A DNA stretch of 64,000 bases from an uncultured Verrucomicrobiae bacterium. GTDB lineage: Bacteria; Verrucomicrobiota; Verrucomicrobiia; Chthoniobacterales; Terrimicrobiaceae. Position 1 is the first letter of the stretch. Each line of letters starts with the position of its first letter. Shown here piece by piece: positions 15,795 through 34,376 of this stretch. Both the position numbers and the translations under genes were made by a program. The notes under the pieces were generated by a model that saw nothing but the letters and a program-made list of their open reading frames with translations, was not told where the DNA came from and did no database searches. The DNA is taken from assembly GCA_963763735.1 (NCBI GenBank), contig CAVXQK010000012.1, positions 14,803-78,802 of the forward strand, given 5' to 3'.

Positions 15795-15820
15795 GCGGCT
15801 CCCAACCCGTCCCGATTCCC

Positions 15821-17311
15821 ATGGCCACCGAACGTATTCTCAACGACGACGAACTGAACGAGGAGATCGCGCAAATTCTCCCCGCCGCCGACCGCTTGCG
15901 ACTGGTCGCGCTCGACCGCACCCGGTCGCTCGCCGCGGCGAAAACGAAGAGCCTCCAGCGCGAGTTGCGGATCGTGCAGGTGCTCGCTCCAGACGACACC
16001 GCCAGCATTGCGGAGGCGGCGCGGCGAGTCGAGTCGCAGCAGCGATTCGAGAGCCTGGCGGCCGTCGAAATTCAACGCGGCGAGGTTGAGGCACCTGCGC
16101 GCAACCCAGCCGCTCTCGTTCTGTTCGGGCGGGTCGTCGACGGGAGGCGTATCGGGCAGGCCGGACTCGTCGTCAGCGCGACGGGTGCCGAAGGGCGCGC
16201 TCTCGTTTTCGGCTGCACGGATACGAACGGCAACTTTCGGCTCGACGTGCCGGCCAACCAACTCTCGAGTTCCAGCGCGCGGCCGGTCGTCACGTTACTC
16301 GTCAGCGATTCACAGCAGGCAATCCGGTACCGCGGCACCGAAGTCTTTCCGGTGGAAGGCAACAAGGTCATCTACCGAGAGATTGTTCTTGGAGACGAAC
16401 CCGGCAAGCCGACGCCCCAACCCCCACCGCCGGTATCCGAGCAAGTCCTCGTGCCCAACGTGGTTGGGGCGGAGCGCTCCACCGCGATCGCGGTGCTGAA
16501 ACGCACCGGTCTCCTGGCGGAGGAAAAAGCCGAGAAGGTCGATGACGACAAAGTGGGACTGGTCGTGGCGCAGGACCCGAAGCCCGGCACCTCGGCGCAA
16601 GCTGGCTCGGCGGTCGCGATTTCCGTCGGCATCGCCTCGGAAAGCGTTGTGGTTCCCGACGTGGTGGGTAGCGTTTTTGGCGAGGCCTCAGCCGCCCTCA
16701 AGCGAGTCCGGTTGTTGGTTGGCACGGTCGAACCGCCCAATCCCGGCGCCGATGCCCCCGTGCTCGACCAATCGCCAAAAGCCGGGTCTCAGGTCGCGCG
16801 CGGCTCGTTTGTGAACTTGAAACTCCAGCCGAAGGTCACCGAACTGCCGACGGTGGAAGTCCCCGATCTCACACGCCTGGCGCCGGACGAAGCCCGCGAA
16901 AAGCTCGAATCGCAGAAGTTGAAACTCGGCGTGGTTACGACCGCGCCAACGGCCGGCAACCAGGTCGGGCGCGTCCTCAGCCAAAATCCGAAAGCCGGGA
17001 GCCAGGTGGCCCCGCAAAGCGTGGTCGCAATCGTGATCGGCGAAAAGGAGGGTGACAGCCCGATACCGTCACGAACCGCCGCCGAGACGATCAAGCTCGT
17101 CGCCCGCGAGCCGGATTTCGAGAAGACCGGAGCCACCGAAGCGAAGCTGCTGCGAATCGCCGAAGAGCAGGGCCTGCAAAGCGAGAACGACCTGCAGAAA
17201 ATCGTCGACACCACCGAAGACGCCGAAGTGCGTGATCGCTTCAAATTGCGCAACCTCGACCAGGCCCGTGCCCTGAAGGAAATCCTGCTCCGCGTGATCA
17301 AACGTCGTTAA
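15821..17311 (+). CDS. PASTA-repeat protein (N-terminal coiled coil, carboxypeptidase-regulatory-like domain, 3 PASTA repeats), last gene of the structural operon
   Basis: Three repeats of the type 'VPNVVG...A...L...GL......V.....G.V..Q.P..G..V..GS.V.I'. 'GRVVDGRRIGQAGLVVSA...TDTNGNFRLDV'. Confidence 0.7.
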   Translation: MATERILNDDELNEEIAQILPAADRLRLVALDRTRSLAAAKTKSLQRELRIVQVLAPDDTASIAEAARRVESQQRFESLAAVEIQRGEVEAPARNPAALVLFGRVVDGRRIGQAGLVVSATGAEGRALVFGCTDTNGNFRLDVPANQLSSSSARPVVTLLVSDSQQAIRYRGTEVFPVEGNKVIYREIVLGDEPGKPTPQPPPPVSEQVLVPNVVGAERSTAIAVLKRTGLLAEEKAEKVDDDKVGLVVAQDPKPGTSAQAGSAVAISVGIASESVVVPDVVGSVFGEASAALKRVRLLVGTVEPPNPGADAPVLDQSPKAGSQVARGSFVNLKLQPKVTELPTVEVPDLTRLAPDEAREKLESQKLKLGVVTTAPTAGNQVGRVLSQNPKAGSQVAPQSVVAIVIGEKEGDSPIPSRTAAETIKLVAREPDFEKTGATEAKLLRIAEEQGLQSENDLQKIVDTTEDAEVRDRFKLRNLDQARALKEILLRVIKRR

Positions 17312-17506
17312 AGCGCGGAAGAATGGGCCCGGTAGCTGCTGAATTTCGCCGAATGGAGCGCGGCGGCAATCTCTTGGTCCCGCCACGTCGGCATCGATGG
17401 GGGGCCGCTTTGGTTAGGATTTTGGCCGGGTCCGGATTCACCGCGAGGCCCGGCGGCGGAGGCGGCAGCGACGGGGAAACTCAACACTCGAGATGCAACA
17501 GGTAGA

Positions 17507-19160
17507 ATGGAAATGCCAGCGTTGATCGCGCATCAAAGTAAGAGGAGGCCTGCGCAATCGCAGCACCCTCACGCAAGGTCCGCGGCAACCCGGGGAATGG
17601 TGCGGGCCGGCGTTTCTCTTGCGCCGTTCGTGCAGGCGAAACTTCGGGTTGGCACGCCGAACGACCGCTTCGAGCAGGAAGCCGATCGAGTCGCGGAGAG
17701 AGTTATGCGCATGCCGGATACCGCAAGTGCCCCGGCTCACCCGGCCGGTTATGCCGGGGACGCCGTACAGCGGAAATGCGCGGCCTGCGCCAGCGGGCAC
17801 GGGCTTTGCACCGAGTGCGCCGAAGAGGAGCGCCTCCAAACTAAACCTGTCGTGGGCGCGAGCAACAACGCCTTGGAACGAGGAGCGGATCGGGTCGCCA
17901 ATTCAGCGAATGCCACGCCATCCACCGTCGTCGGCGGGATGCCACTGTCCCTCCCGGGATTTTCCGAAGGATCGATCAAGCAGACGAATTCGGCTTTAGC
18001 CGGCGTGGAGCGGACGTTAGCCGGTGCCGGTCGACCTTTGGATCCGCCGCTCAGGCGGGACATGGAGAGGCGCTTCGGCCATGACTTTTCCCCGGTCCGG
18101 GTGTATTTCGGCGGCATTGCTGGACAATCAGCCAGAGACTTGAATGCCGACGCCTACACGGTTGGGCAAAGCATTGTGTTTGGTGTTGATCCGCCCGCGC
18201 TGGAATCGACTGGCGGGCGAAAGCTGCTCGCGCACGAGTTGACGCATGTGGTGCAGCAAACGAAGGCATCCGCGCCGTCGATCGTGCAGCGCCAGGCAGG
18301 CGGAGGCGGACCCGCAGGCGGGCCTCCTGCGGCCGGAGCCCCGTCGTTGTCGGTGAAATACAAGGGTTGTGGAAAGGCGCCGTTCACCCAGCCGGTGGTC
18401 GAGGCGGCTGCTCTCGCGGCATACAATAAGGTCGTCGGCAGCAATTGCATAAAAAGCACGGAGCTACGGGACGAGATATTGAGCGAATTCGCCGACCTGA
18501 CGATCGATTGCGAGCAGGGGAGCGGCAGTTCGCCCTGCGGCATGGCCTGGCGGTTCCTAAGCCACACGGTGAACATCTATCCCAAGGCGCTGGCCGGCGG
18601 CAGTTGCGGGCCTTTGGAATCGACCATCCTGCACGAAGTCGTGCACCTTACGGAATTGCGGCTCATCGAGCACGGCGATCTGGCAGACGCCTGCGAAGCT
18701 TCGTGTTTTGGCTGGGGGAGCGGTGACCCGGCGAAGTGCGACGAAAAGACGCTCGTGCTCCATGGACCTCGCGTTGCCCTGGGTGCGAGCCTGGCCGGCG
18801 GCCGTGGTCCTTTCGGCCGGATCGGCTATGAGGTTCTCAGGAGCTGGACGGGAACCGCGTTTTCTCTGGGCCTTCATTTGGATGTGCCGCTGACCGACCG
18901 CGACTCATTTGTGCGAGCGGGGCTCGAGGTAGGGTCGAACTTCCAGCTCCTCGGTTCCCTCTACGGCAGGCTGTACGGCGGCTTGTCGGTGCCCTTGCCG
19001 CCTGGCGGTGCTTTGCCCGACACAACGGTTGGCGCTGGTCTCGGCTTCGATTTTGGCCGAACGCAGCTGGAAGTTCTTTACGAAGTGCTGAACGTTCAGT
19101 CCAGGGACGTGCGGACCCAACAAGCTCCTGGTTGGGCTGGGCTTTCGATTCGGAAAATAA
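17507..19160 (+). CDS. DUF4157 (eCIS core domain) protein 1 with a second HExxH module; 3' end probably frameshifted
   Basis: 'VQAKLRVGTPNDRFEQEADRVAERVM', 'RRDMERRFGHDFSPVRVY', 'LLAHELTHVVQQ', second 'ILHEVVHLTE'. The frame-2 ORF runs to 19360. However, frame 3 from about 19110 gives 'NKLLVGLGFRFGK*' (stop 19158-19160), similar to the protein-5 terminus. An alternative start is ATG 17597. Confidence 0.75.
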
Positions 19161-19202
19161 CTGACGGTTCCCTCGTACGAACCCCAAGGAGGCAGGCATC
19201 GA

Positions 19203-21117
19203 ATGAAGCTTGGCATCTGTCCGCATCGCGCGCCGCGCGAAGCCTCCATGCGCCCGCGATCTCGCAAAGCGGAATCGCCCGGCCGCCGCGCCGCAGGATC
19301 GTCGTCCAGCGCCTTGCATCCCGTCATCCAAGCCAGATTGAGGACGCGCCTTCCGAGTGATTGTGAACGGGAGTCGGATCGGTTTTCTCAAGATGGGAGG
19401 CGCCCGACAGACCCGGGCCTGCGACGGCCCCGCTCCTCCGGCGGAGAGTGCGCGAGGAGTCGAAACGAGGGCAGGGAGCACGTCGGGCCCGTCCCCGACG
19501 GCAAGGCCGCGAACTGGCCGAAGAGGCGCTGGCTGCCGAGCGGATCGAAGAAGTCAACGGGCAGGTGGAATTCGGAATCAGGAAAGTTGCGGGCGGCATG
19601 CCCATGCAGAAATCCGCACGGGTTATTTTCGAGCCACGCTTCGGTCGCGACTTCAGCCACGTGCGCCTCCACACGAACCCCGCCGCGATATCTCTTGCAC
19701 GGGCGCTTCGCGCCGCGGCCTTTACCTGCGGCTCCGATATTTTCTTCAATGCCGGAGAGTACGCGCCCAACAGCGTGGCCGGCCGGGGATTGCTCGCGCA
19801 CGAGCTGGCGCACACGATTCAGCAAGCGACCGGAGATGTGCGCGTCCAGCGGGCAATCATCCCCTACCGGCCAATCACCTGGGCCGACTTTCTGGCTGCT
19901 CCTCCGGCCGGTCAGAACCCGGCCGAGGGCGCCGGAATTCTTTCCAGATTCGACCTGATTCCGTCCTACACCCCGGTGATCACAGCCAAGCCAACGAAAA
20001 AGCCGTGCCGCGCGGGCCGGATTCGCGCCGAGGAAGTTGAAGCGACCGCCGCGCCCGATCCCGCCGATTTCAACAAGCCCGAGGCGGTCATGGATCAGGA
20101 CCAGTCGTGGGCGCTGCCGCGCTACACGGGCAACGGCAACGACTTTTGCGCGAGCGAGGTGACCCGGTGCGAAAACCAGTTCGACAGCGTCCGGGCCTCG
20201 GTGCGGACAAATTGCGAGCGGAGCGCCAGCGGAATGCGAGCAAGCTTTCGATCGGGGAGAAAAGGCCTTTGGGATCGCCCTTGGCCGCGATTCCGTTCGG
20301 GTGACCCGCAAAGCCGATTGCCGAACCACGTTTCTGACAAGGTGCCAGGAGATAACTTCCAAGGCGGCAACGGTGTCGATCGGCTCAACCATCGTCCGAA
20401 CGAAGGAGGATTGCCAGCGTACCTACTTTCGCCAATGTCTGACGAGCGAGGTCACGAGCGGGCACGCCTTTTGAGGCATGAGCAGGGACATTTCGACATC
20501 ACCAACGTCATGGCACGAAATGCCCGGGAGAGCATCAAACTAAAGGCTGCGGGTCTGTCGGTGAAGGAAACGGGCTGCGGTGAGGACGCCGCCCGCGACG
20601 CCGCCAGAGGAACCTACGACAGCACTGTGAAGTCGGTGCTGCGACAGTTGAGCAATGATTGGCTGGCCGCCAAGGATCGGGCGCAACAGGACTATGACGG
20701 CCAAACCATGCACAGCTCGAACGCGGCCAAACAACGGGCTTGGGAGACGGACATTGCGGCTGGATTAAAGGCTTACGTCCCTGCGAATGCTCCCGTCCCC
20801 GCGGCGGCACCGGCCCCAGCCGCCGGGAAGTCGTCCGGCCGCGCCGACTCCGGCCAACCCTCCGGCGAATCCTCCGCCGGTCGCGGCTCCGAAGCGCCCG
20901 GGAGAGCCGCGGTGACTTATCGGCCTCGTTCGATGTCACTTTGCTCTTCTCGAATCGTCCGACTTCCCTCCCGCCACCCGGCGACTCGAAGCAATTCGTG
21001 GCGCTCCCGATCCACGTTGAGCGGATAGTCCGAGTCATGAAACTGGCCTCGCTCCAGGAGTCGAAAGTGAAAGCGATAAATGGTGGGAAACACTGCAAGC
21101 GGACGACCGGGGCGTGA
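19203..21117 (+). pseudogene. DUF4157 (eCIS core domain) protein 2, disrupted by several frame changes; DUF922-like HEQGH module
   Basis: AAGGAGG lies 10 nt upstream of ATG 19203. The leader 'HPVIQARLRTRLPSDCERESDR' is in frame 3. The core 'FEPRFGRDFSHVRLH...LLAHELAHTIQQ' is in frame 2. The segment 'CEQAFDRGEKAFGIALGRDSVRVTRKADCRTTFLTRCQEI...' (about 20235-20470) is in frame 3. 'LLRHEQGHFDI' is back in frame 2. The tail is in frame 1. Confidence 0.65.
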
Positions 21118-21144
21118 TGCGTCGGAAAATTCAAGCGTTGCAAA

Positions 21145-21438
21145 ATGCAAACGCCGGTCACCGTCAATCAGACACCGGCAAGCCCGCTGCGAAATATTGA
21201 AGCCACGCGATTTTCCGCGATGAAGGCGATCGGCCTGGGCACCTCGTTCTCGTTCCCCCTGGGCGAAGGAAAATTCCTGACCATCGGGCACATGCTCTAC
21301 CTGCCGGGCACGGGCAATACGCCTGTCCGGACGGACCTCCTTTTGCCGCCTTACGTATCGGATCGGGACGAGAAAGTGCGCCTGGTTTCCGGGTTCCAAT
21401 TCAGCGGTTCGTTTGACGAGACCAAGTGGTTCAAATGA
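21145..21438 (+). CDS. hypothetical 97-aa protein (or former C-terminal part of DUF4157 protein 2)
   Basis: Strong G/C preference at third codon positions and non-biased amino-acid composition. It is in the same frame as the 20930-21117 coding-like segment, separated by a single TGA. Confidence 0.45.
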   Translation: MQTPVTVNQTPASPLRNIEATRFSAMKAIGLGTSFSFPLGEGKFLTIGHMLYLPGTGNTPVRTDLLLPPYVSDRDEKVRLVSGFQFSGSFDETKWFK

Positions 21439-21595
21439 ACTAGTCCTGGCCATCGCATTGATCCAAATCGCGCCACTCGAATCCGCTCGCCGTCTGAGCC
21501 CCTTTCCGCAATGAAATGCGTGCCGCTGCAAAACCGTAAGCCCCGCTTCCCGCTGTCCACCTCGAACCGCACGCACTCGCGAGCCGCCGCGTTCG

Positions 21596-23221
21596 ATGGC
21601 TCCGTCCGCGCTCTCGCATCCGATCATCCAGGCCAGGCTCCGCGTCGGCGCTCCGAATGATCGCTTCGAGCAGGAGGCCGATCGTGTTGCGGAGAGAGTC
21701 ATGCGCATGCCGGATACCGAAAGCGCGCCAGCTCTCCCGGCCGGTATCGCGGACGACGCCGTGCAGCGGAAATGCGCGGCCTGCTCCAGCGGCGGGCACC
21801 TCTGCCCGGAGTGCGCGGAGGAGGAGGAGAAAGTGCGTCGGAAGCCGGGCGACCATCAATTGCTTCAGGCCAGAGAATCGCCGGGAGCCGTGCCGCGACT
21901 GAGCCGCGGAGTCGAAGCCAGGATTCGTGGATTTCAGGGAGGTGGCCGGCCTTTACCGCAGGGCGAACGAGCCTTTTTCGAGCCGCGTCTGGGGGCGGAT
22001 TTTTCGCAGGTTCGCATCCACACCAATACGCCGGCTGCCGAGACCGCCGCCGCGATTCAGGCGCGAGCCTTCACGACAGGCTCGGACATTGTCTTCGGGG
22101 CGGGTGAATATCAGGGGGAGCCGACTTCCCGCAGCCGGGAATTGCTGGCGCATGAACTTGTCCACGTCGTCCAGCAGGGAGCCGCGCGCGGCGGAGCCTC
22201 CCCGGGGGTGATCCAGCGCAGGAAGCCGCCCGCTGCGGTTCCCACGCAGCTTGTCTCCCCAATCCTGGCCGGAGATGCGATCCTCGAGGATGTGATAAAC
22301 GATCGATCCGTTCTCCGGCAGGGGAGCAAGGGAGACGCGGTTCGCCGTGTGCAGGAGGCTCTCCTGAGCGAGGGTTATCCGCTGCCGAAATTCGGCGCCG
22401 ACGGCATTTTCGGACCCGAGACGGCGAAGGCGGTGCGCATGTTCCAGCAGCGATGGCGGCTCGACGTGGACGGTATCGTTGGCGATCAGACTTTGGGGCT
22501 GCTGGACAGCCATCTCTTCAACAAGGGCGTGCTCCAGTTTGGAGAAGAACGGGGCGGTCTCATCGGCGGCATTGCCAAGCGACTCGCCACCGCCGGGCTG
22601 GACATCAGGGAGGCCGACTTTGCGAGAACCGACTGTCCCGCGGCCAACAAGGCGGAGCGGCTCACCGCGTGCATCCAGCCGGTGGTCATCGCCGAGGACG
22701 ACGGCTCGAATCCCACCGCGTCGCCCCCGTTCGAGGTGGCTCAGCGCATCTGGGAGAAATGCTGCATCAACTACTCCGTGCTTCCCACTCAAACGGTGAA
22801 CAAGTCGGACTTCAAGGTGCTCGACGAATCTCCGAACAACATACCCACGGCCGAGGAGACTGCTCTGTTTACGGCGGCAGGAGCGAGCCGGTGCATCCAG
22901 GTGTTCGTGCCGGAGACCTTCGAGCAGGGCGGCGTCATCAGCAAGGCGATCTCAGGTGGCGGCGCAACGTACGACGGTGGCGCCGCCAACGCCAAGGTCG
23001 TAGTGGTGGAGGGCACGGTGTCGGAAGTCGTCGCACACGAGCTCGGGCACGCCACCGGTTTCGGCGGGCACGATGGAAACCCGACTGTCATGAAGCCGAC
23101 CGGCGCCCATAACGTACCGAATTCCACTGCCGTCTCCAAGGACGTTTGCACACGCGCCCGCACCGGCGGGACTCTGGCCACAACCGGCGGAACCGCCGAT
23201 TGCTGCATGGATCCACGCTAA
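21596..23221 (+). CDS. DUF4157 (eCIS core domain) protein 3 with peptidoglycan-binding domain and C-terminal metzincin-like HExxH module
   Basis: 'IIQARLRVGAPNDRFEQEADRVAERVM', 'FFEPRLGADFSQVRIH', 'LLAHELVHVVQQ'. PG_binding_1-like 'GSKGDAVRRVQEALLSEGYPLPKFGADGIFGPETAKAVRMFQQRWRLDVDGIVGDQT'. 'VVAHELGHATGFGGHDGNPTVMKP'. Confidence 0.8.
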   Translation: MAPSALSHPIIQARLRVGAPNDRFEQEADRVAERVMRMPDTESAPALPAGIADDAVQRKCAACSSGGHLCPECAEEEEKVRRKPGDHQLLQARESPGAVPRLSRGVEARIRGFQGGGRPLPQGERAFFEPRLGADFSQVRIHTNTPAAETAAAIQARAFTTGSDIVFGAGEYQGEPTSRSRELLAHELVHVVQQGAARGGASPGVIQRRKPPAAVPTQLVSPILAGDAILEDVINDRSVLRQGSKGDAVRRVQEALLSEGYPLPKFGADGIFGPETAKAVRMFQQRWRLDVDGIVGDQTLGLLDSHLFNKGVLQFGEERGGLIGGIAKRLATAGLDIREADFARTDCPAANKAERLTACIQPVVIAEDDGSNPTASPPFEVAQRIWEKCCINYSVLPTQTVNKSDFKVLDESPNNIPTAEETALFTAAGASRCIQVFVPETFEQGGVISKAISGGGATYDGGAANAKVVVVEGTVSEVVAHELGHATGFGGHDGNPTVMKPTGAHNVPNSTAVSKDVCTRARTGGTLATTGGTADCCMDPR

Positions 23222-23339
23222 AGGCGATCGCCGGAGTCGTCGCGCCGCGCCACCCCTTGCGTTGCTTCGTCGGCTTGCCGCCCCCGATTTGTTACCATCG
23301 CCGGAGCGGCCCACTTCGAGGCGCGCCATTGAACGTGCC

Positions 23340-26300
23340 ATGCCCGTTACCCACGCCCGCGTCCTGAGAGTGGACGCCCGTTCGCCAACGCGGCCGGGTC
23401 GACAGCGCGCCCCGGCCAGTCACGAACGGAACGAGTCGCTTCATCCGGTCGTCCGGGCGAAACTTCGCGTCGGCGCGCGGAACGACCCTTACGAGCAGGA
23501 AGCCGATCGTGTGGCCGGCGAGGTGATGCGGAGGCCGGATGCTTCGAAGAACGCGGCGGCCGACTCCTGTCCCGTGCAGGCGGATCCGGGCGCCGACCGC
23601 CCCCTAACGGAACTGGGTGAGGATCTTGCCTCTTCCCAAAACCAGCGTCTGGACCCCACCACCCGGACATTCATGGAATCCCGCTTCGGCCACGACTTCG
23701 GCCGGGTGCGGCTGCATGCGGACGAAAGCGCCGCCGCGGCGGCGCGCAGCCTGCATGCCCGGGCGTTTGCGGTGGGGCGGGATATTTTCTTCGGTGCCGG
23801 CCAGCACGCGACGGAACGTGCCGATGGGCGGCGGTTGCTCGCTCACGAGTTGACGCACGTGCTGCAGCAGACCGGGCGCCTCGGGCGCCCGGCGATGGCG
23901 CCACGAGCCATTCAGCGCCAGCCGGTTGAGGAGGCACCCCCAGCGGCCGAGGAGGAGCAGGAGTCGTCGGAAGAGATTGACGAGGAGGCCGGATCCACAA
24001 ACGAAATCGAGGCGCTCGCGGCCGACGCCCTGGCCGTCGGGCGCCAGAATGCCCCCGAAGTGCTCGCGAAAATTGCCGCCTTCAATCCGCTCCCGGAGGC
24101 GGTTGCCCGGCTAGACGGGGACGATGACGCCCTCGGACATCTCCTGAAGGTGCTCGGACCCGACGCCTGGCGGCCGGAGAACCGCAAAAGCCTGCTTGCC
24201 ATCCTGCCGTTGCGTACCGCCAAGCGCAACGTCGAGGCCATCCAGAACGAGGTCGACACGGGCCTGCTCAAACTCGACTTAGGCGTGAGCGCGGACGAGG
24301 CGCACCTGGCCTACGAAGTTTTCAAGGCCATGAGTGAAGCCGATCGCGCGCGGTTCCTGCAGACTCCCGAAGGACGGCAGGCATTTGAAAAGGTGGGCGA
24401 AAGAGCCAGCTCGGAGCTCCGGATCTCGCGGGAGTTCGGGTTCTACGATGCCGATGTCGAGGCCCTCCTGGCCGAGCTCGAAAAGCTGGAAACCTGGAGC
24501 GAAGACCAGCGGGGCTGGTTGCGCACGGTCTTGGCGATGATTGTTCAGGGCGGTCACGCCGGAGACCCGCGCGTGGTGCAATTCGTCCGGCACAATTGGG
24601 AGCTCGATCCGGAGTTTTTCGCCGGGCTGGGATTTACCGGGCAGGGAGAAATCACCCCCGAAGAATTGCACGATACGCCGAATCCCCGCTGGCTCGGGTG
24701 GTTCACGAAGGTTGGCTTGACGGGCCTCTGGGCCGACGCCCCTGGAACCATCCAACTCGGCCTGCAATTCGTGGGAGGCAAACGAAGCCACGTCGAGGGC
24801 GTGCCTGTGGCCAGTCTGCCGTTGGGTTCTTTGCTTCGCGGCCTCGGGGGATCGCTGTCCGGCATCGACCTCGAGGAGATTCCTGGCATCGAGGATTCGG
24901 GTCTCGCCACTGTCTCGATCGATAAGCGGGAAGGCTTGTTCATTCTGGACGTCACGGCGGCCGCGATTCCAACGGTCGATCTGACGGGAAAAGGGGAAGC
25001 GGGCGCGACGCTCACGGTGACCGCGATGAACGGCAGCTTCGGCGATCTTCATGTCGAGGCGCGCTGGCCCGCCGAGGAGAATCCGACCCAACTCCCCGAT
25101 TTGCGGGTGCGGGTCGGCTGGCTCGGCCTGAGCACCGTCGTTCTTTCTTCCGGAAATCTGCTCGTCGGAGCGGATCACCTCCGGTTGCAGAATCTGGAGT
25201 TCGACGCCTCCCTCTCCGCCGCAAGCGAAAACGGCCGGTTCCGGATGAAGCAGTTCGTCGGAAATCTTCAAAGCCAGCTCGCCGCGGTCATTTCCGTCGT
25301 CCAGAGCGCGCTTTTCGCCGTGGTGACGACCGGATTGGGGCAGCAGCAATCGCCCGACGAAACTGAGGTGCGCGATGCCGCCTGGTTTACGAACGTGTTG
25401 CGCGAAACAATGGCGACCGAGTTCGACGACGCCCTTCTGAGTCACCTGAGCGTAGGGTCGCTGGCCGCCGAGAATGTCGTTTTCGCCAGTGGCGAGTCTC
25501 TTGACCGGGTCGCAACCTCCCTCGATCTGACCATTGCGGCCGGTCCCCGGGCGCTGGCGAGCCTCGAGATGGCCCGGATCGAAGAGGGGGCGGCGGATCG
25601 CGACCTCACTCCAGAGGAAAAAATGAGGTTGGACGAACTGATGCGGGTCGAGGCGTCCGATCCGACGGAGGCTCGCGAGCGCATCGCAGCGATGGGCATG
25701 GATCCGGATGCCGTGGAGTTGCGCCTTAAACTGGACAGCCCGGACAGCGAAGAGGCGCTCTCGGTTGCCGGCATGAACATACCGGGCGTGGTGCAGTCCC
25801 CGGGCACGATTTCCCCGGACCGGGCCACGATCGAGCTTCGGTTTCCGGGAGAGAGCGTTCAGATTCCACCCGGCGCCGATTCGGATGATCAGGGACGCAT
25901 CCTGTTCACCCTGGAGCTCGATGCGCCCGGCACGCTCCAGACGTCGCGCGATCTCGGGGTCGCCGGTCTGCCGCCGCTTGGCCCGATCACGGTTGAAGGC
26001 GCGACGGGCGAAGCCATCGTCCGCGAAGGCGGCGTCGTGAGCCTCGAGGTTGTCCTGCCGAGGGTGGGTTTTGAAGGCGTGCGCTCGGCGATCACGGTCG
26101 ACGCGCAGGAAGGCGTCGCGCAGGGCGTCCACCTTGTCGCCGACCTGGTAATGGACCCGACTCGCCGGCTCGGAATCCTGCAAATTGACAATTGTGCCGT
26201 CTTTGTCGAAGCCGTGACGGCGAAGGAGGTCGTCGTGGAGCGCCCAGGGGCATGGAGCGTGCAGGTTTTCGATCCTGTTCTCAACGGGCTGAAGCTCACG

Positions 26301-28733
26301 GCGGGACTCATCGACGGGAAGCTGGTGGCAGAGACGCTGCACGTCGGCCCCGGTCAGGTCTCCGGACTCGAGGCCTCACTCGGGACCTTGCTCAAGGCGA
26401 GTTCCCGGGAGACGTTGAGCTTCGGGGCCATCGATATCGAGGAGATCGTGCCCTACAAGAGACACGGGTTTACGATCTCGGACCTGGATGCGAATCAGGT
26501 GCGGGTGGAGGCCGGCGACCAGTCCGTTCGCGTCGTGCGCTTCGACAGCAAGGAAGTCGAAGGCGAGCTGGGGCTCGATCTCGAGACCGGAGAGTTCCAG
26601 GGCGGCGAGCTTTCGATCGCGGGCGGAAGCATGGATCTCGGCGCTCTCGATTTCGATTTCCCGTGGGGCGGAGTCACTGCCCGATCCGCGACCCTGCCGT
26701 CGTTCTCGGCTACCGCCAGGGCCACTGTCGAGAATCTGGGGGCGGGCGACGCGACCGAGTCGCTCGGTGTCACCATCGAGGCGGTCGATGCGCCGGTGGT
26801 CGCAGCGGAGGGCATCGGCTTCGAGATCCCGACCGTGGGTGTTCGCGGTCGGTTGGACAGCCAGCCGGGTATTCTCGAGGGGCTGGCGATTCGCGACGTC
26901 GGCCTGACCCTGGACGCGAAGGGCATCACGACGAAGGGTGGAACGGTCACTGCCGACCGCACGCGATTGACGGAACTCGAGACGTGGGTGCGGGATGTCG
27001 CCTTTGCGCGAACCTCGGCGAGCACTGGAAAACTGAGCTTCCAATTTTTCTCCGACGGCACCGGCGGACAGTTTCGGGTCGAGGATCTGGAAGTCGATTC
27101 GAACGGCTGGGTGCAGGTGAAGAACGGTCAGAGGGGAGCCTTCGTGCTGGAGGCCTTCACGGCCGACGCTGTCGAGGGCGCCGTCACGAAAACGGGTGTC
27201 GAGGCGAATGTTCCCGCCGGAAGCCTCGATCTTGGTCCACTCGACTTCACATATGCCGGGGTCCACGTGAAATGCACCGGTGCCTCGGCGCCCGACGTCC
27301 TGCTGAAGGTGCGAGCGGCGGCGGGCAAGGCGCCCTCCGGCGGCGCGACTCCGTTGCAGATCACCCTCGAGCAAGCGGAGGCGCCGCTTGTGCATGTCGA
27401 GGGACTGGAATTTGATCTCCTGAGGCTCGGCGTGCATGGGTCGCTGCTGGATCATCCTGGCGTGCTCGAAGGCGTGACCCTCGCCGGGATCGAGGCGGTG
27501 CTCACGCCGCAGGGCTTCACTCTCGAAGACGGAACCGTGACGATCAATCACACCCAGGCCGGCGGCGCGAAAGTGCAGGTGGCGAATCTGCTGTCCGGAA
27601 GGGCCAGCGCAGGCACGGGCGCCGTGACAGTCCAGTTCTTCAGCGACCAGCAGGTAAAGTTTGGCGCCAAGGACATTACCGTGGAGGCAGATGGAAATGT
27701 GACGATTGCGACCGGCAATCCAGGCAGGTTCGTGCTCGTTGCGGGATCTGTCCGGACGATCGAAGGCGAACTGAGTCCGGAAGGTATCGAGGGGAGCGCG
27801 CGGGGAATCCTGCTGGGGCCCGGCACCTATGACGACGGCAACCTGCAGATCAACTTTCAGATTATGAAGGTCGACGCCGCGTTTTCGAAGGGAGCACTTG
27901 CCCTGGACGCTTATCGTCTCCTTTCCCCGCCACTCCTCGCGGCAATGGAAGCCAGAGGCATCGGCACCCTTCTTGGAATCGACCTCGAGTCGGCTACGAT
28001 TCTCATTCGAGACGTGTGGTCGCTGCCAGGGGCCGGCAACCCCTTGGATCCGAGCCGCCTGGAAGGTTTCAAGGCGCTCGCCCGGGGTGCGAGCGGCGAA
28101 CTCTCCGGCAGGGTCGTCACCGACGAGGATGCGGCTTACGCCAATCTCGAAGCGACCGTGACGGACGGCCTGGCCAGCGGCCGGCTTTTCGACACGTTCT
28201 TTTCGTCTCCGATTCCAGCTCCGGATCCCATTCCCTTTCAGTGGGACCTTGTGACCCTGCTCGACTCGGCGACGTTGGGAAAAGCCTTCGCGGATAAATT
28301 GAGTGGAAGGGTCGCTCCGCAACCGGCCGGCGCCCCGAGCATGGCGGAAGTCCTGTTGGTGCGCGTGCTGCAGAAGACCGAGTTTCGGGACATCAACGGC
28401 CATCTGGAAGTGCGGCTCGAGACCATTCCCATCGGGACGCTCGGCTACCTGCGCGCGGCCCGGCAGAATGCGCCTCAGGTGTCATTGGTTCTTTCCGGAA
28501 ACACGGCGAGAGATCTCCAGGCCGGCTTCTCCCTCGGCGCGCTCAGCCTCGATACCGTGGTGTGGAATTTGTTTGTGTCCTCCGCGCAAGGGGTGGTGAT
28601 CGATCAGGGGCAGGTTCGGGTCACTTTCGACGGCCTCATCCCGCGAAGCGTCAGCGGCACCATCCAAAAGGGGCACATCGACGCGCTGAAGCTCTTCGGG
28701 CCGCCGCAGGCAGCCACCGCGGGCGGGCACTAG
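23340..28733 (+). CDS. giant DUF4157 (eCIS core domain) protein 4 (about 1800 aa) with repeat-rich C-terminal region of unknown function
   Basis: 'VVRAKLRVGARNDPYEQEADRVAGEVM', 'FMESRFGHDFGRVRLH', 'LLAHELTHVLQQ'. A single uninterrupted ORF (the longest version starts at 23262). Contains internal repeats of about 195 aa. Confidence 0.8.
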   Translation: MPVTHARVLRVDARSPTRPGRQRAPASHERNESLHPVVRAKLRVGARNDPYEQEADRVAGEVMRRPDASKNAAADSCPVQADPGADRPLTELGEDLASSQNQRLDPTTRTFMESRFGHDFGRVRLHADESAAAAARSLHARAFAVGRDIFFGAGQHATERADGRRLLAHELTHVLQQTGRLGRPAMAPRAIQRQPVEEAPPAAEEEQESSEEIDEEAGSTNEIEALAADALAVGRQNAPEVLAKIAAFNPLPEAVARLDGDDDALGHLLKVLGPDAWRPENRKSLLAILPLRTAKRNVEAIQNEVDTGLLKLDLGVSADEAHLAYEVFKAMSEADRARFLQTPEGRQAFEKVGERASSELRISREFGFYDADVEALLAELEKLETWSEDQRGWLRTVLAMIVQGGHAGDPRVVQFVRHNWELDPEFFAGLGFTGQGEITPEELHDTPNPRWLGWFTKVGLTGLWADAPGTIQLGLQFVGGKRSHVEGVPVASLPLGSLLRGLGGSLSGIDLEEIPGIEDSGLATVSIDKREGLFILDVTAAAIPTVDLTGKGEAGATLTVTAMNGSFGDLHVEARWPAEENPTQLPDLRVRVGWLGLSTVVLSSGNLLVGADHLRLQNLEFDASLSAASENGRFRMKQFVGNLQSQLAAVISVVQSALFAVVTTGLGQQQSPDETEVRDAAWFTNVLRETMATEFDDALLSHLSVGSLAAENVVFASGESLDRVATSLDLTIAAGPRALASLEMARIEEGAADRDLTPEEKMRLDELMRVEASDPTEARERIAAMGMDPDAVELRLKLDSPDSEEALSVAGMNIPGVVQSPGTISPDRATIELRFPGESVQIPPGADSDDQGRILFTLELDAPGTLQTSRDLGVAGLPPLGPITVEGATGEAIVREGGVVSLEVVLPRVGFEGVRSAITVDAQEGVAQGVHLVADLVMDPTRRLGILQIDNCAVFVEAVTAKEVVVERPGAWSVQVFDPVLNGLKLTAGLIDGKLVAETLHVGPGQVSGLEASLGTLLKASSRETLSFGAIDIEEIVPYKRHGFTISDLDANQVRVEAGDQSVRVVRFDSKEVEGELGLDLETGEFQGGELSIAGGSMDLGALDFDFPWGGVTARSATLPSFSATARATVENLGAGDATESLGVTIEAVDAPVVAAEGIGFEIPTVGVRGRLDSQPGILEGLAIRDVGLTLDAKGITTKGGTVTADRTRLTELETWVRDVAFARTSASTGKLSFQFFSDGTGGQFRVEDLEVDSNGWVQVKNGQRGAFVLEAFTADAVEGAVTKTGVEANVPAGSLDLGPLDFTYAGVHVKCTGASAPDVLLKVRAAAGKAPSGGATPLQITLEQAEAPLVHVEGLEFDLLRLGVHGSLLDHPGVLEGVTLAGIEAVLTPQGFTLEDGTVTINHTQAGGAKVQVANLLSGRASAGTGAVTVQFFSDQQVKFGAKDITVEADGNVTIATGNPGRFVLVAGSVRTIEGELSPEGIEGSARGILLGPGTYDDGNLQINFQIMKVDAAFSKGALALDAYRLLSPPLLAAMEARGIGTLLGIDLESATILIRDVWSLPGAGNPLDPSRLEGFKALARGASGELSGRVVTDEDAAYANLEATVTDGLASGRLFDTFFSSPIPAPDPIPFQWDLVTLLDSATLGKAFADKLSGRVAPQPAGAPSMAEVLLVRVLQKTEFRDINGHLEVRLETIPIGTLGYLRAARQNAPQVSLVLSGNTARDLQAGFSLGALSLDTVVWNLFVSSAQGVVIDQGQVRVTFDGLIPRSVSGTIQKGHIDALKLFGPPQAATAGGH
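26040..27850 (+). repeat. protein-level tandem repeats (about 590 nt / 195 aa per unit, at least two clear units, probably three to four) inside DUF4157 protein 4
   Basis: Anchor motifs 'MDLGALDFDFPWGGV' (about 26630) and 'LDLGPLDFTYAGVHV' (about 27225). Parallel segments 'EAVDAPVVAAEGIGFEIPTVGVRGRLDSQPGILEGLAIRDVGL' and 'EQAEAPLVHVEGLEFDLLRLGVHGSLLDHPGVLEGVTLAGIEA'. Confidence 0.6.
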
Positions 28734-28748
28734 CAAAATGCGTGGCGC

Positions 28749-29786
28749 GTGATTAGTTTCAAGAAGATCATGTCCCTAGCCCAACTTCAAAAATCAAAGA
28801 GACCGGGAAGGAATTCGGGGCGGATTCCAGCCAGTCCCATCCGGCGCGCCCCCGGGCAAAACGCGTCGATTGCGCCGGTAATCCAAGCCAGGCTGCGCAT
28901 AGGCGCTCCCCATGACCGTTTCGAGCAGGAGGCGAATCGGGTCGGCCGCGCTGTCGTGGCTGCACCGCGTCCCACCGGGGCGCATCGCTCGGGCCTCGCC
29001 GACAGTCCGCGGACCCTGCCGGGTGAGATGCCCGGGGCTTCGGTCGGAGCGGGGATGGACTTCGAGAAGCTCTGCGGTCATGGCCAGCCGCTGGCGCAGC
29101 CTTTGCGCGGATTCTTCGAGTCGCGGTTCGGTCGCGACTTCGGCCATGTCCGCATCCACGCGGACGCACAGGCGGCCGGGCTGGCCGAGTCAGTGAGAGC
29201 GAGAGCGCTTGCAATTGGACGGGATGTTGTCTTTGGCGCGGGAGAGTTCGCGCCCGGCACGAGTCGCGGGCGGGAACTGGTGGCGCACGAACTGACTCAC
29301 GTCGTGCAACAGGAGGGAGGGGCGGCGCAATCCCAGCCCGGCACCATTCAACGGCAGCCGAAGACGGACACGGCGCCTCCGGTGTTCCCCGATTTTCCGA
29401 ATTTCGCGTTGAAGCTTGAAGACGACATTGGGCAAAACCTGTTCGATTACGGGCACCAGTTTTACCGCCTGGCGACCCTCTTTCCCGATCAACCGGAACT
29501 GCTGCAGCAAGCCTTTGGCCGCTATGCGCTGGGCAAAAACGTGCTCGACACCGGTTTCCGTTTCCTGGGTCTCGATGAGAGCACTGCGAGCCGTCTTGCC
29601 CTTGGAACGGGCATCCTTTTCAAGGGACTGAATTTCGTGAAGGACGGCGAAATCGTACTCGATTTTCAGTTCGACATTGGCCGTGGACTGAAGCTCGAGA
29701 CCAGCCTTGACCTAGGAGTGAACCCCCAGGATCGCAATCAGGTGCGAAAGGCAGAGGCTGGAATCGGCATCGTCGGACGCTTTTGA
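28749..29786 (+). CDS. DUF4157 (eCIS core domain) protein 5 (short, about 340 aa)
   Basis: 'VIQARLRIGAPHDRFEQEANRV', 'FFESRFGRDFGHVRIH', 'LVAHELTHVVQQ'. Alternative ATG start at 28770. Confidence 0.8.
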   Translation: MISFKKIMSLAQLQKSKRPGRNSGRIPASPIRRAPGQNASIAPVIQARLRIGAPHDRFEQEANRVGRAVVAAPRPTGAHRSGLADSPRTLPGEMPGASVGAGMDFEKLCGHGQPLAQPLRGFFESRFGRDFGHVRIHADAQAAGLAESVRARALAIGRDVVFGAGEFAPGTSRGRELVAHELTHVVQQEGGAAQSQPGTIQRQPKTDTAPPVFPDFPNFALKLEDDIGQNLFDYGHQFYRLATLFPDQPELLQQAFGRYALGKNVLDTGFRFLGLDESTASRLALGTGILFKGLNFVKDGEIVLDFQFDIGRGLKLETSLDLGVNPQDRNQVRKAEAGIGIVGRF

Positions 29787-29917
29787 AAAGCTTGATACAG
29801 CCTCCTCTCCGACGCCGGGGCCTCGCTTCGATGGCGCGCGCCTGCGGAAGCTGAGCGGCATCCTGCGCGTTGGGGATGTGACAACCAGTGAATCCAAGGG
29901 AGAGTGTCACAAAATTG

Positions 29918-31219
29918 CTATATTTTGCTTAGCCGAGCTATGAGACCCTTTTGCACGGAAGAATGAATCTCTTCGGGAAATCCGGCGGGAAGCTGCTTTA
30001 CCACTGCCTTTAACGCCGTTTCTACGTCCCTCGCAATTTCCTCTAACGCGTTCTGCGCAATGGCGGCCGGCAAGCCGGCTCGCTCAACATTCTGCACGAA
30101 ATGCCGTCCCTGAATGGACTCCATCGTGTAGTGCCGGCTATTTCCCGCCGACATTGCCAGCTTCATTTGCTTTTTGACGATGTGGTGAGCGTCAAGGCTG
30201 GGCTGCGCCGTGAGAACATCATAAAGCGGCGTCATGTTGAAGCGTCCGCCCGGACCGAGAAAGATGCTGAAGTTCTTGGCGTGGCCGTCGGTCGCGCCGA
30301 TCAGCCAATAGAGAATTTGCGCCTTCAAAAAATTCTTCTGGTCGTCAGCGGGGGTATCGCTGCCTTTTAGGAGAGTGAGAATATCCACCATTCCTGGCCC
30401 GCCCTCGGTTTGATATTTTCGGGTCGGCGGCGTGGAAAGCGCCTGGCAGCAATCTTCCTGGGGAACGCGGAGCAACCGTCCATCCTTTGTCCATGTCCGG
30501 TCAAAGCGCTCGATCACGAGAGCTTTCGTCTTTCCAAAAATGTGGATGCCGGCGGCGTTTACGGGCGGCCCGAAAGCCGCCATGAGCTTTAGGCAATAGT
30601 ATTCATTTTCAACGCTGTTCGAAAGGTCGATGCCGTTCGGAAGAGTGCCGATTTGCGTCTTGAAAATGTGGGTTGTCGGCGTCGTCCCGTGAGGCTTCCA
30701 CCATTTATCTTTATGGAACAGGAGCGCTGTCTTTTCCTGCGCCCCGGCAACGGAAATGCGGAACTCCTGGTCTCGATCAAGACCCAAGGGGGCTTGGGCT
30801 AGGTTCTGGAGAAGCTTCTCAATGTCTTCTTCACTGACGGCCTGACCCTCAATGCTCGAAGTATCATAAACGGCATCGTCGTCATCGGGAATGAATTGCA
30901 AAGCGCCGACGCAGTCGCGCCCGATCCGGGATAACAGACTGTAAGAATCTGTTCCATCAGCGGCAACTTTCTCGGCGACCCGCCGCCGGAGCGCTTCGGA
31001 ATCGGGCAACAGGTTCTCGAAGACAGCAATGACGGGTGCGCCTTTATAAGCATCTTCCCGCAGCGGAAGGGAAAGCGACACGGGGATCGCCCGTTCCCAT
31101 GCGAGCCAGCTTACATCATAGCGAAAATCAATCCCGCCACCGGTCTCTTTCGAGAGGTGTCCGACGGGGCGATTATTGAGGAGGACGCGCAGGGGCGCGT
31201 ATTGGCGTTTGCGGGCCAT
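29918..31219 (-). CDS. hipA: HipA-family serine/threonine kinase toxin
   Basis: 433 aa. N-terminal 'LRVLLNNRPVGHL...IDFRYD' coupling domain. Catalytic loop 'GATDGHAKNFSIFL'. Its start overlaps the hipB stop. Confidence 0.9.
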   Translation of the reverse strand: MARKRQYAPLRVLLNNRPVGHLSKETGGGIDFRYDVSWLAWERAIPVSLSLPLREDAYKGAPVIAVFENLLPDSEALRRRVAEKVAADGTDSYSLLSRIGRDCVGALQFIPDDDDAVYDTSSIEGQAVSEEDIEKLLQNLAQAPLGLDRDQEFRISVAGAQEKTALLFHKDKWWKPHGTTPTTHIFKTQIGTLPNGIDLSNSVENEYYCLKLMAAFGPPVNAAGIHIFGKTKALVIERFDRTWTKDGRLLRVPQEDCCQALSTPPTRKYQTEGGPGMVDILTLLKGSDTPADDQKNFLKAQILYWLIGATDGHAKNFSIFLGPGGRFNMTPLYDVLTAQPSLDAHHIVKKQMKLAMSAGNSRHYTMESIQGRHFVQNVERAGLPAAIAQNALEEIARDVETALKAVVKQLPAGFPEEIHSSVQKGLIARLSKI

Positions 31220-31470
31220 CAGAAGTCACTTTCTATGTCACGGCCCCAGCCTTTCGAGCGGGGAGCAATCTGAAACTCCAGATCAAGGGCGGAGAGGACA
31301 GCCAGCAGGGTCTCAATCCTGGTCGCCGAATTGCCGGTCTCAATCAAGGAAATGGTTTCCTGGCGCAGGCCGACCTTGTCGCCGAGCTGCTGCTGGCTGA
31401 GGGAGTGTCGCTTGCGGGCACGCCGGACGAGGGCGCCAATTTGCCTGGGATCGCGGGCCGGATCATTCAT
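31219..31470 (-). CDS. hipB: HipB-type XRE-family HTH antitoxin
   Basis: 'IGALVRRARKRHSLSQQQLGDKVGLRQETISLIETGN' HTH. ATG at 31470 (the longest ORF starts at 31548). Translationally coupled to hipA. Confidence 0.85.
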   Translation of the reverse strand: MNDPARDPRQIGALVRRARKRHSLSQQQLGDKVGLRQETISLIETGNSATRIETLLAVLSALDLEFQIAPRSKGWGRDIESDF

Positions 31471-31477
31471 TTCCCCA

Positions 31478-31579
31478 TTATGCGCCAAATCCGATAAAGC
31501 GTCAATATCGGAAATGGCGCATAATATAGATATTATGTGGTAAATCACATAAACTCAGATTATCGCGTCCGGCGCATAA
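31478..31579. promoter_or_regulatory. hipBA promoter/operator region with nested palindromes
   Basis: Inverted repeat TTATGCGCCAAATCCGATA (31478-31496) / TATCGGAAATGGCGCATAA (31506-31524), 17 of 19 positions complementary. Palindrome ATAATAT-AG-ATATTAT (31521-31536). Third half-site GGCGCATAA at 31571-31579. Confidence 0.6.
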
Positions 31580-31805
31580 GCCGTCCCAGGGAAGCACTCG
31601 AACGATAAGTTCGTCCGGTGTTACGAGGAGTCGAGAGCGTAAAGGGGGATTATCCTGTTGAGCTTGTAGCTCAGCACGCTCTGCGGAGTGGCTTCGCCCA
31701 AAGACTTTCGCGCTTTGCGCGAGGCAGTCGAACCGAGGTTCTCATCCCTGCCGTGGCGTGTTATCGGTGTCGGCCTTTGCAAGGGAACTGCGGCGGTAGC
31801 GGGAC

Positions 31806-31895
31806 TGGCGGATGGGCAGGGATTCGAACCCTGGGTTCCGGTTAAGGAACACACGCTTTCCAAGCGTGCGCATTCGACCGCTCTGCCACCCATCC
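31806..31895 (-). tRNA. tRNA-Ser (anticodon GGA), type II with long variable arm, CCA encoded
   Basis: Reverse complement: GGATGGG-TG-GCA..TGC-G-CACGC-TTGGAAA-GCGTG-T-GTTCC..GGAAC-C-CAGGG-TTCGAAT-CCCTG-CCCATCC-G-CCA. All stems pair. Confidence 0.9.
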
Positions 31896-31981
31896 GTTTA
31901 CAAAAACGCTACATAGTCGGTGTTGCGGCGCTTGGCAACTCATGGTTGGCGGACGCCCCGCGACACGGCGGTTGCCCGATC

Positions 31982-31999
31982 GGCCCTTCGCAAAGGGCC
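31982..31999 (-). terminator. hairpin immediately after the lysC stop (GGCCCTT-CGCA-AAGGGCC), no obvious U-tract
   Basis: 7-bp perfect stem directly adjacent to the stop codon at 32000-32002. Confidence 0.3.
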
Positions 32000-33226: not shown

Positions 33227-33261
33227 GAGTCGCGGATCGGGAGGTTAATCGTTGGTTGTGA

Positions 33262-34317: not shown

Positions 34318-34376
34318 TTGATCGTGGCGTTAGCAGCCTGTCAGAGAGGGTGACGTCATTTCAAGTCCGGCAGCTG

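Follow-up and report, generated by a model that had tools for sequence, protein, structure and literature searches.

The DUF4157 domain (PF13699, now eCIS_core) was named the PVC-metallopeptidase by Zhang, de Souza, Anantharaman, Iyer and Aravind (2012; PMC3482391, section 13). In their description it forms the constant N-terminal part of polymorphic toxins that Photorhabdus virulence cassette (PVC)/extracellular contractile injection system (eCIS) machines export. The same paper proposes autoproteolytic release of the toxin, a prediction made without a test, and mentions that a genome can have several such toxins, that immunity genes are frequently missing, and that some toxins have Tox-HET-C tails or a second, C-terminal domain resembling a peptidase. 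Geller 2021 (PMC8213781) treats DUF4157 as a core marker of eCIS, which lies N-terminally in toxins, with linkers sometimes longer than 1000 residues, and also occurs in flanking genes, and it was found in 51% of predicted toxins by Danov 2024 (PMC11297309). In AlgoCIS, two adjacent DUF4157 proteins fill the tube lumen (Xu 2022; PMC8894135), and loading depends on the disordered N-terminal domain (NTD) and not on DUF4157 (bioRxiv 10.64898/2026.05.27.728243). The C-terminal DUF4157 metallopeptidase of VgrG2b, a type VI secretion system (T6SS) effector, acts in the bacterial periplasm (Wood 2019; PMC6899460). Here we describe a tandem array of five DUF4157 genes, g1 to g5, downstream of an eCIS operon in a 64,000-nt stretch of DNA from an uncultured soil bacterium of the Verrucomicrobiae (family Terrimicrobiaceae; contig CAVXQK010000012.1). 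This whole stretch is called the window, and coordinates are window positions unless another contig is named.

Heads, tails and turnover in the DUF4157 array

The five genes follow one another on the + strand, and all match PF13699 in a Pfam profile search, with scores of 91.6-102.1 bits as compared with a gathering cut-off of 22 (E 3.5e-26 to 1.9e-29). Their heads are 37-55% identical to each other at the protein level; HExxHxxQQ and FExRFGxDFxxVR are invariant in them, as are H243, E244, H247, Q250 and Q251 in the head alignment. The tails showed no pairwise similarity at E<=1e-3. A preliminary description of this DNA had reported just such a DUF4157 head followed by unrelated tails, directly after the structural operon, and had named DUF4157 as reported to be enriched near eCIS loci and fused to toxin domains. 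Its claim of one complete head module in all five genes holds for the HExxH core and fails for the g2 open reading frame (ORF), which lacks the first head motif (the leader lies in another frame). In DNA, identity between the heads reaches just 60-85%, over stretches of 173 nt at most; they are therefore old paralogues, not recent duplicates. The array part of the window has a G+C content of about 64%, and g1 starts 196 nt past the end of the last structural gene, on the same strand as the operon.

We consider it quite probable that the array is a recombining, diversified set of eCIS payload genes, in which a constant DUF4157 head carries swappable tails. We read it in this way because the content of one slot varies in three strains, orphan fragments remain, and tails occur behind another leader. 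The same evidence upholds the earlier suggestion of a diversified cargo set, a reading also found in Zhang 2012, Geller 2021 and Xu 2022. As for eCIS cargo, we found same-strand genes just downstream of the eCIS core, a predicted disordered leader and an AAA+ ATPase in the locus; as in polymorphic toxins, we found a constant head, unrelated tails, strain turnover, relics, swapped leaders and a jump in synonymous divergence (dS).

A sister strain from another sample (L001, ERZ25039490 contig_16489) matches window positions 17624-35900 at 97% identity over 18.3 kb, and the two were aligned base by base. In L001, at least seven DUF4157 genes follow one another, namely genes for 619 aa and 483 aa and then homologues of g1, g2, g3, g4 and g5; this contig also holds a 265-aa gene without DUF4157 after the 483-aa gene, and a homologue of relic 2 (described below) between g2 and g3. 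Another contig (L002), with 81-86% identity across the structural genes and g4-g5, contains between the last structural gene, which encodes a PASTA protein, and g4 a single unrelated 406-aa DUF4157 gene, with about three head-bearing genes in all. In the window, this slot contains relic 1, g1, g2, relic 2 and g3. Since its content differs in the three related contigs, we call the slot hypervariable, in contrast to the conserved g4 and g5. In the comparison of the window with L001, dS was 0.17-0.22 for g1, g2, relic 2 and g3, and 0.013-0.02 for g4 and g5, an approximately ten-fold fall. The switch lies at 22885-23062, within the 3' end of g3 near the HELGH motif, where divergence falls from about 6% (dS about 0.17) to less than 1% (dS about 0.015), and this interval is likely a recombination breakpoint. 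The ratio of nonsynonymous to synonymous divergence (dN/dS) was 0.10-0.45 throughout, and the frames of g3, g4 and g5 are open in both strains. In the L001 array, the 483-aa DUF4157 gene (L001 1532-2983) carries the leader motif twice, and the 265-aa gene (L001 3395-4192), the sole head-less gene there, gave faint methyltransferase-like matches; it is possibly an accessory or immunity gene.

Two relics lie in the slot. Relic 1, located between the PASTA gene and g1, corresponds to the start of a DUF4157 core. The larger piece of relic 2 is a 97-aa ORF that had been singled out as the only candidate for an immunity gene. A metagenome scan with this ORF yielded a single relative, on metagenome contig L084, where the sequence ends an intact protein of 631 aa that has a leader, a DUF4157 core (E 1.7e-33) and a Het-C match (E 1.1e-7, 31 bits as compared with a cut-off of 21). 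Relic 2, read in two frames, shows 84-89% amino-acid identity to residues 509-631 of this protein, and a g3-like gene follows the Het-C effector gene in L084, as relic 2 precedes g3 in the window. The 97-aa ORF is thus the orphaned 3' end of a Het-C effector gene, and its candidacy for immunity has to be given up. The broader statement that no cognate immunity genes are interleaved is confirmed, since the only interleaved ORF is a toxin-gene fragment; the gaps are 118 nt between g3 and g4 and 36 nt between g4 and g5. The possibility that the ORF is a broken end of g2 resembling module B of g1 (see below) was rejected, as hidden Markov models of modules A and B and of the g5 tail gave no match.

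The intact genes of the array are g3, g4 and g5 only. In g2, besides the frameshift that parts the leader from the core, the tail has two indels, +1 at position 20226 and -1 at position 20454; positions 20232-20453 are sensible only in frame 0, so that 76 codons of the ORF (526 aa) are read in the wrong frame, with at least three frameshifts in all. The g2 of the sister strain is also broken, at another site, and is split into 417 + 130 aa. Thirteen indels of 1-2 nt, none of them in homopolymers, cluster in 19119-21577 between the window and L001; they are probably real rather than sequencing errors, because only a single indel separates the two over 15 kb from position 23000 on. Mapping of reading frames by G+C at third codon positions (GC3) gave a clear result for the structural genes, but in the array its noise was too great for locating frameshifts. 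The g2 pieces and relic 2 (21145-21395), whose broken or truncated state is common to both strains, showed dN/dS of 0.11-0.31. With such low values in its pieces, the inactivation of g2 looks recent; the substitution pattern suggests either this or that the fragments, relic 2 included, may still be constrained.

The junction between head and tail is marked by [IV]QR[QRA], which is found 15-22 residues past HExxH in all five window genes. In 154 diverse cores, taken from 80 genome loci among the matches listed, ΦQR occurs within 30 residues past HExxH in 47%, as compared with a 2% background in downstream tails, and its position peaks at +12 to +18. The tail families of g1 and g5 also follow a short leader that has no DUF4157 core, either '...LQRQVGNAALAGILQRQ' or 'HPLLRLQQSVGNRAVA...LIQRQ' in type, and they join it exactly at QRQ; among the examples are P0147 and P0024, which have the g1 and g5 tails behind an LQRxxGNxA...QRQ leader. 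The leader of the DUF4157 heads carries ΦQAKLRVGxPxDxxEQEAxRV, a conserved amphipathic helix in the disordered N-terminus, and QAKLRVG...EQEADRV is present in 45 of the 154 cores. Between the leader helix and the core, g1 (17741-17830) and g3 (21830-21880) contain a CxxC...CxxC stretch, 'QRKCAACxSGxxLCxECAEEE', which resembles a small zinc ribbon and is not found in g4 and g5.

With the head alignment as query, we also surveyed at least 80 loci among the matches listed, which come from many phyla of bacteria and archaea. Of the 53 loci with 15 kb or more, 20 held a single DUF4157 core within +-10 kb, 15 held two, 13 held three, 4 held four and 1 held five. As 33 of the 53 hold 2-5 cores, nearly all on the same strand, tandem arrays are the rule, and arrays of five or seven genes are among the largest. 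The matches listed in the profile scan of genome contigs included no close relative of the window.

Tails of the five genes

AlphaFold2 (AF2) models were obtained for g5 and for P0143, a full-length homologue that served as proxy for g1 (tail 79% identical to g1; 34 sequences). Both models have a disordered NTD (predicted local distance difference test score, pLDDT, <50), a confident core (about 90) and a disordered linker directly after the HExxH helix, which spans residues 142-161 in P0143 and 165-185 in g5. The g5 model (mean pLDDT 64) falls below 50 at residues 1-45 and 72-95, which predicts disorder there, and in the P0143 model (mean pLDDT 77) the leader is disordered except for a helix over the EQEADRI motif. 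Sequence searches of the PDB with the five whole proteins gave only matches for the PG-binding domain of g3 and none for DUF4157 at E<=1.

An exhaustive profile search with the g1 tail retrieved 103 cluster representatives, which split into two separable modules: module A occurred alone in 71, module B alone in 29, and both together in only 2. Module A (about 150 aa, Cys-rich, with HEVVH) was modelled confidently in P0143, and DUF4157 proteins of Gemmatimonadetes and of Methanoperedens, an archaeon, also contain it, in some cases together with an OmpA-type domain. Module B (about 120 aa) always lies at the extreme C-terminus, behind differing middle regions. In the window, a 1-nt insertion at 19119 shifts the frame of g1, spoils its true last 11 codons and lets the ORF run on to 19360. 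The true end, '...LLVGLGFRFGK' and a stop, can be read in another frame at 19125-19160 and is intact in the sister strain, in which g1 ends '...HQLLVGLGFRFGK' and a stop. The HEVVH motif formerly ascribed to g1 is present, and the last ~80 aa of the 617-aa ORF are out of frame.

The predicted barrel at the end of g1 is the least expected feature of the locus. In the P0143 model, module B consists of eight antiparallel strands (pLDDT about 67-86). In Foldseek comparisons with the PDB, NspA was the best match (E 2.7e-6, TM 0.57) and PagL reached TM 0.64; OmpX, Ail and the OmpA transmembrane domain were also matched. Hydrophobic and polar residues alternate in seven of the eight strands, and the loop lengths (5, 2, 7, 2, 7, 3, 8) alternate between short and long. 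Module B is therefore predicted to follow the pattern of 8-stranded outer-membrane beta-barrels (OmpX/NspA/OmpA-TM/PagL-like). By inspection, no signal-peptide predictor having been run, no Sec signal was seen at the N-terminus of g1, which has an eCIS leader instead; in the producer it is therefore no conventional outer-membrane protein. In the accessible parts of the literature searched, we found neither a link of contractile injection system effectors with OmpX nor a barrel-type DUF4157 cargo module. Homology of module B with the g5 tail (hhalign E 0.09, probability 0.6%) and of module A with the DUF4157 core (E 9e-4 over 34 columns around HExxH) was considered and rejected as too weak.

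The tail of g2 has the HEQGH motif noted previously (20477) and a sub-threshold match to DUF922, whose score stayed below threshold with the frame-corrected, reconstructed tail. The PG-binding domain and HELGH motif described for g3 were likewise recovered. Its PG_binding_1 domain resembles endolysin and spore-cortex-lytic cell-wall-binding domains, and in its C-terminal domain the spacing of HELGHATGFGGHD is one residue longer than HExxHxxGxxH, with TVMKP 7 residues further on. All matches of this domain were sub-threshold (Reprolysin_5, E 0.003-0.007; Peptidase_M10, E 0.07; PDB metzincin/matrilysin, E 0.12-1).

The likely start of g4 is the ATG at 23340, because the resulting 1797 aa equals the length of a 99%-identical homologue (P0001); this length is kept on at least four contigs. 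The preliminary description had called g4 a repeat giant. It is indeed very long, but its repetitiveness was overstated, as a single tandem duplication is significant (nt 26499-27830; aa 1054-1300 versus 1258-1497, about 200-240 aa, E down to 4e-20). The g4 tail has only four homologues among 5.8 billion proteins, and, like the tails of g1 (module B) and g5, it matched no Pfam, NCBIfam or PHROG family. One of the four homologues of g4, in L003 (9970-14649), encodes 1559 aa, 36% identical, with a DUF4157 head. In L002 (8812-14280), the g4 homologue was called in four pieces (375, 1013, 237 and 144 aa) and the DUF6519/beta-helix gene in two, and on another contig g4 is split into 898+205+690 aa; these splits stem either from indels in the assemblies or from inactivation of this giant gene more than once. 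The g5 tail is short, as had been stated, with four helices and three strands predicted (pLDDT 58-82), and Foldseek found nothing below E 0.6 in the PDB for the g5 model. Its family comprises 35 homologues, all at least 50% identical, some with a DUF4157 head and some with a core-less LQxxxGNRAV leader. Exact-sequence look-ups of the g3, PASTA and g4 proteins and of P0194 returned no record.

Gene content of the locus

The features of the locus are collected in Table 1. The NCBIfam matches of the operon include TIGR02243 baseplate proteins. In the baseplate J-like gene, ORFs 4901-6862 and 6450-7457 overlap by 412 nt with no stop at the frame change, and GC3 periodicity changes frame near 6400-6470; TIGR02243 positions 1-84 match in the first ORF and the Baseplate_J domain in the second. 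The sequence thus suggests that there may be a frameshift in this core structural gene. The PASTA protein has three PASTA domains in its C-terminal half (E 3e-33) and could, from its domain content, be a peptidoglycan-directed receptor-binding protein; PASTA is absent from the main text of a 2026 catalogue of eCIS receptor-binding domains. Immediately beyond g5, a hipA kinase and a hipB-like helix-turn-helix (HTH) gene form a toxin-antitoxin pair, followed by amino-acid biosynthesis and housekeeping genes. A scan for promoters and terminators found such sites no more commonly than by chance.

Table 1. Features of the DUF4157 array and its surroundings in the window.
Feature	Position	Strand	Basis or remark
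3' part of eCIS structural operon	4-17311	+	Pfam and NCBIfam matches
AAA+ ATPase	4-1050	+	Pfam/NCBIfam
Tube-like	1308-2006	+	Pfam/NCBIfam
gpD-like	2298-3458	+	Pfam/NCBIfam
VgrG OB	3459-4169	+	Pfam/NCBIfam
gp25	4520-4897	+	Pfam/NCBIfam
Baseplate J-like	4901-7457	+	frame switch near 6400-6470
Baseplate	7529-9988	+	
Operon ORF between baseplate and DUF6519/beta-helix genes	9995-12157	+	
DUF6519/beta-helix	12123-15794	+	
3xPASTA protein, last structural gene	15821-17311	+	496 aa
Relic 1, DUF4157 core fragment, GARRQSLGPATSASMGGRFG-stop-DFGRVRIHREA	17355-17450	+	in-frame TAG; repeat family D5, translation
g1, ORF as read	17507-19360	+	617 aa, end out of frame
g1, true extent	17507-19160	+	comparison with sister strain L001
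g1, leader motif VQAKLRVGTPNDRFEQEADRV, CxxC...CxxC stretch, DUF4157 core, junction		+	HELTH 18233; VQRQ 18284
g1 module A, Cys-rich HEVVH domain	~18344-18748	+	
g1 module B, predicted 8-stranded OmpX-like beta-barrel	~18806-19160	+	
g2 pseudogene	19203-21028	+	frame comparison with sister strain
g2 leader, HPVIQARLR	19203-19343	+	frame 0
g2 DUF4157 core		+	HELAH 19799; frame 2; frameshift near 19504 between leader and core
g2, ORF as read	19448-21028	+	526 aa
Relic 2, last 123 codons of DUF4157-Het-C effector gene	21066-21438	+	indel at 21142, two frames
97-aa ORF, larger piece of relic 2	21145-21438	+	
g3 ORF: leader, CxxC...CxxC, DUF4157 core, junction	21596-23221	+	HELVH 22151; IQRR 22211
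g3 PG_binding_1	aa 246-303		E 3e-15 (Pfam)
g3 C-terminal metzincin-like domain		+	HELGHATGFGGHD at 23036, then TVMKP
g4 ORF	23262-28733	+	likely start ATG 23340
g4: leader, DUF4157 core, junction, ~1580-aa tail	23340-28733	+	1797 aa; HELTH 23844; IQRQ 23910
g5 ORF	28749-29786	+	probable start ATG 28770
g5: disordered leader, DUF4157 core, junction, ~140-aa tail ending ...GIVGRF	28770-29786	+	338 aa; HELTH 29286; IQRQ 29346
hipA/HTH (hipB-like) pair, right boundary of locus	29918-31548	-	synteny and domain matches

Mechanism, rival explanations and comparison with known systems

The sequences themselves show the domain content, synteny, turnover between strains, relics and predicted folds; we infer the loading, injection, processing, toxicity and target of the array proteins chiefly from described systems. 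By analogy with AlgoCIS, the leader would be the signal by which the AAA+ ATPase of the locus threads the protein into the tube lumen, where it would be stored unfolded. The preliminary description had offered the whole head as a loading module; this does not suit DUF4157 itself, which is dispensable in AlgoCIS, but may suit the leader, the first ~70-100 residues of the shared head. After delivery, the zincin-like DUF4157 core may cleave or otherwise mature the tail, as suggested by Zhang 2012 and by the position of QRQ. A flexible Gly/Pro/Ala linker would begin at ΦQR(Q/R/A), with an exchangeable C-terminal effector beyond it. The PG-binding, Cys-rich, barrel and PASTA features suggest that the targets may be bacterial envelopes, the tails that point this way being those of g3 (PG_binding_1 and metzincin-like), g1 (Cys-rich HExxH and barrel) and g2 (DUF922-like HExxH). 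Such toxins would be harmless in the cytoplasm of the producer, which would explain the missing immunity genes. Recombination in the heads and at QRQ would insert, delete and replace cassettes between the PASTA gene and the g4-g5 pair, leaving orphan fragments and pseudogenes.

A more specific proposal, which we put forward tentatively and consider rather unlikely, is that module B inserts into the outer membrane of a Gram-negative target, either spontaneously or via the beta-barrel assembly machinery (BAM) of the victim, and acts there as an anchor or is toxic. It is coupled with the idea that ΦQR(Q/R/A), 12-18 residues past HExxH, would be both the autoproteolytic release site and the place where DUF4157 heads and core-less LQRxxGNxA leaders exchange tails. 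If this is true, a membrane-inserting barrel cargo would be an effector principle that we did not find described for contractile injection systems.

Several observations weigh against the reading of the array as a diversified payload set. The g1 and g2 genes are frameshifted and the baseplate gene apparently switches frame; the system may be partly defunct in this strain. The g4-like gene of L003 lies between ammonium transporter and methyltransferase genes, with no eCIS within 10 kb. According to Zhang 2012 (PMC3482391), the third zinc ligand of the PVC-metallopeptidase is a Glu on a later helix (HExxHxxQ-E); both AF2 models pass directly from the HExxH helix to the disordered linker, and the invariant acidic residues E58, E187 and D193 of the head alignment are located upstream of HExxH. 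The dN/dS of 0.1-0.3 in the g2 pieces and relic 2 is not explained by a simple 'old pseudogene'. In AlgoCIS, DUF4157 is dispensable for loading and the toxicity of Cgo1 is independent of HExxH (bioRxiv 10.64898/2026.05.27.728243).

One possible explanation for the defects is that the array is a decaying remnant without current function, the eCIS and its cargo being lost in this lineage. The 3' frameshift of g1, the three or more frameshifts of g2, the two relics and the possible baseplate frame switch would all fit, and the indel cluster is unlikely to be sequencing error. However, dN/dS is 0.10-0.45 for the intact parts, g3, g4 and g5 are open in both strains, g4 has kept its full length on several contigs, and active polymorphic toxin loci normally include pseudogenes and orphan fragments; decay of the whole set appears quite improbable to us. 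It might also be asked whether the DUF4157 proteins lyse the envelope of the producer and so release the particles, with g3 acting like an endolysin and the g1 barrel in the outer membrane. The cell-wall-binding domain of g3 and the resemblance of module B to outer-membrane barrels would agree with this, and eCIS particles are freed by lysis of the producer, according to PMC8213781. We see only a very slim chance for such a role, as neither a Sec signal nor a holin or spanin was found, the proteins have the same leader and DUF4157 head as the AlgoCIS tube-lumen proteins (PMC8894135), and close strains differ in the copy number and content of these genes, as would be expected of weapons more than of a housekeeping module for lysis. 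That the tandem array is an assembly artefact, made of collapsed or chimeric repeats, is hardly credible. The heads are a repeated sequence and the source is probably a metagenome-assembled genome, but the independent L001 contig keeps the order from g1 to beyond g5, and the heads differ too much in DNA sequence for an assembler to confuse them.

Taken together, we prefer to regard the array as a diversified payload set, and the locus as a compact natural experiment in eCIS cargo diversification, in which a hypervariable slot lies between a fibre-like gene and two effectors, all three conserved, and breakpoints, orphan fragments and head-swapped relatives can all be seen. Modestly new are the explicit slot with its breakpoints and orphan fragments, the QRQ junction common to two leader types, the predicted OmpX-like barrel module and a PASTA protein as last structural gene. 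For toxin discovery, the locus offers candidate domains in the g4 tail (1580 aa), the tail of g5 and the beta-barrel module. The QRQ junction provides a defined site for asking whether DUF4157 acts as the releasing peptidase proposed in 2012, and, with the leader motif, it is a candidate portable part for engineering eCIS delivery.

Orphan 3' fragments are familiar from Rhs/CdiA polymorphic toxin loci, in which cassette replacement leaves them displaced downstream. Relic 2, standing downstream of g2, resembles them; in contrast to Rhs/CdiA loci, the window has no Rhs or FHA repeats, no immunity gene with the orphan, and another delivery machine. VgrG2b also has a DUF4157 HExxH domain on a contractile-injection effector, which fits the envelope-directed look of the g1 and g3 tails, although in VgrG2b the domain is a C-terminal toxin on a spike protein, whereas in the window it is an N-terminal constant module. 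The cargo proteins Cgo1 and Cgo2 of AlgoCIS are closer, being encoded by adjacent genes with disordered NTD, DUF4157 and differing C-terminal domains, in a cluster with an AAA+ ATPase. One of these C-terminal domains is a predicted metalloprotease and the other is very long, as in the window, a likeness by description only. AlgoCIS has two cargo genes as compared with five and relics here, and NTDs are system-specific according to the preprint (bioRxiv 10.64898/2026.05.27.728243), whereas the window has the widely conserved QAKLRVG...EQEADRV motif.

Among eCIS-associated toxins (EATs; PMC8213781, PMC11297309), N-terminal DUF4157 and DUF4157 neighbours are found as in the window, and most have no annotated toxin domain or immunity gene; the validated domains of EATs (ADP-ribosyltransferase, deaminase, nuclease, transglutaminase and others) were not found in the array. 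With the PVC-metallopeptidase toxins of 2012 (PMC3482391), the locus has in common the constant HExxHxxQ head, the variable C-termini and the adjacency to PVC/eCIS genes, and missing immunity genes, typical of the PVC subclass, were already noted there. It differs in that strain-level turnover and orphan 3' fragments are directly visible, and in that the g1 module B, g4 and g5 tails could be assigned to no described toxin domain by way of Pfam, NCBIfam or PHROG. The locus leaves the known picture of the system unchanged: its arrangement belongs to a known class, described in 2012, of which the window is a clear example and not a new kind.

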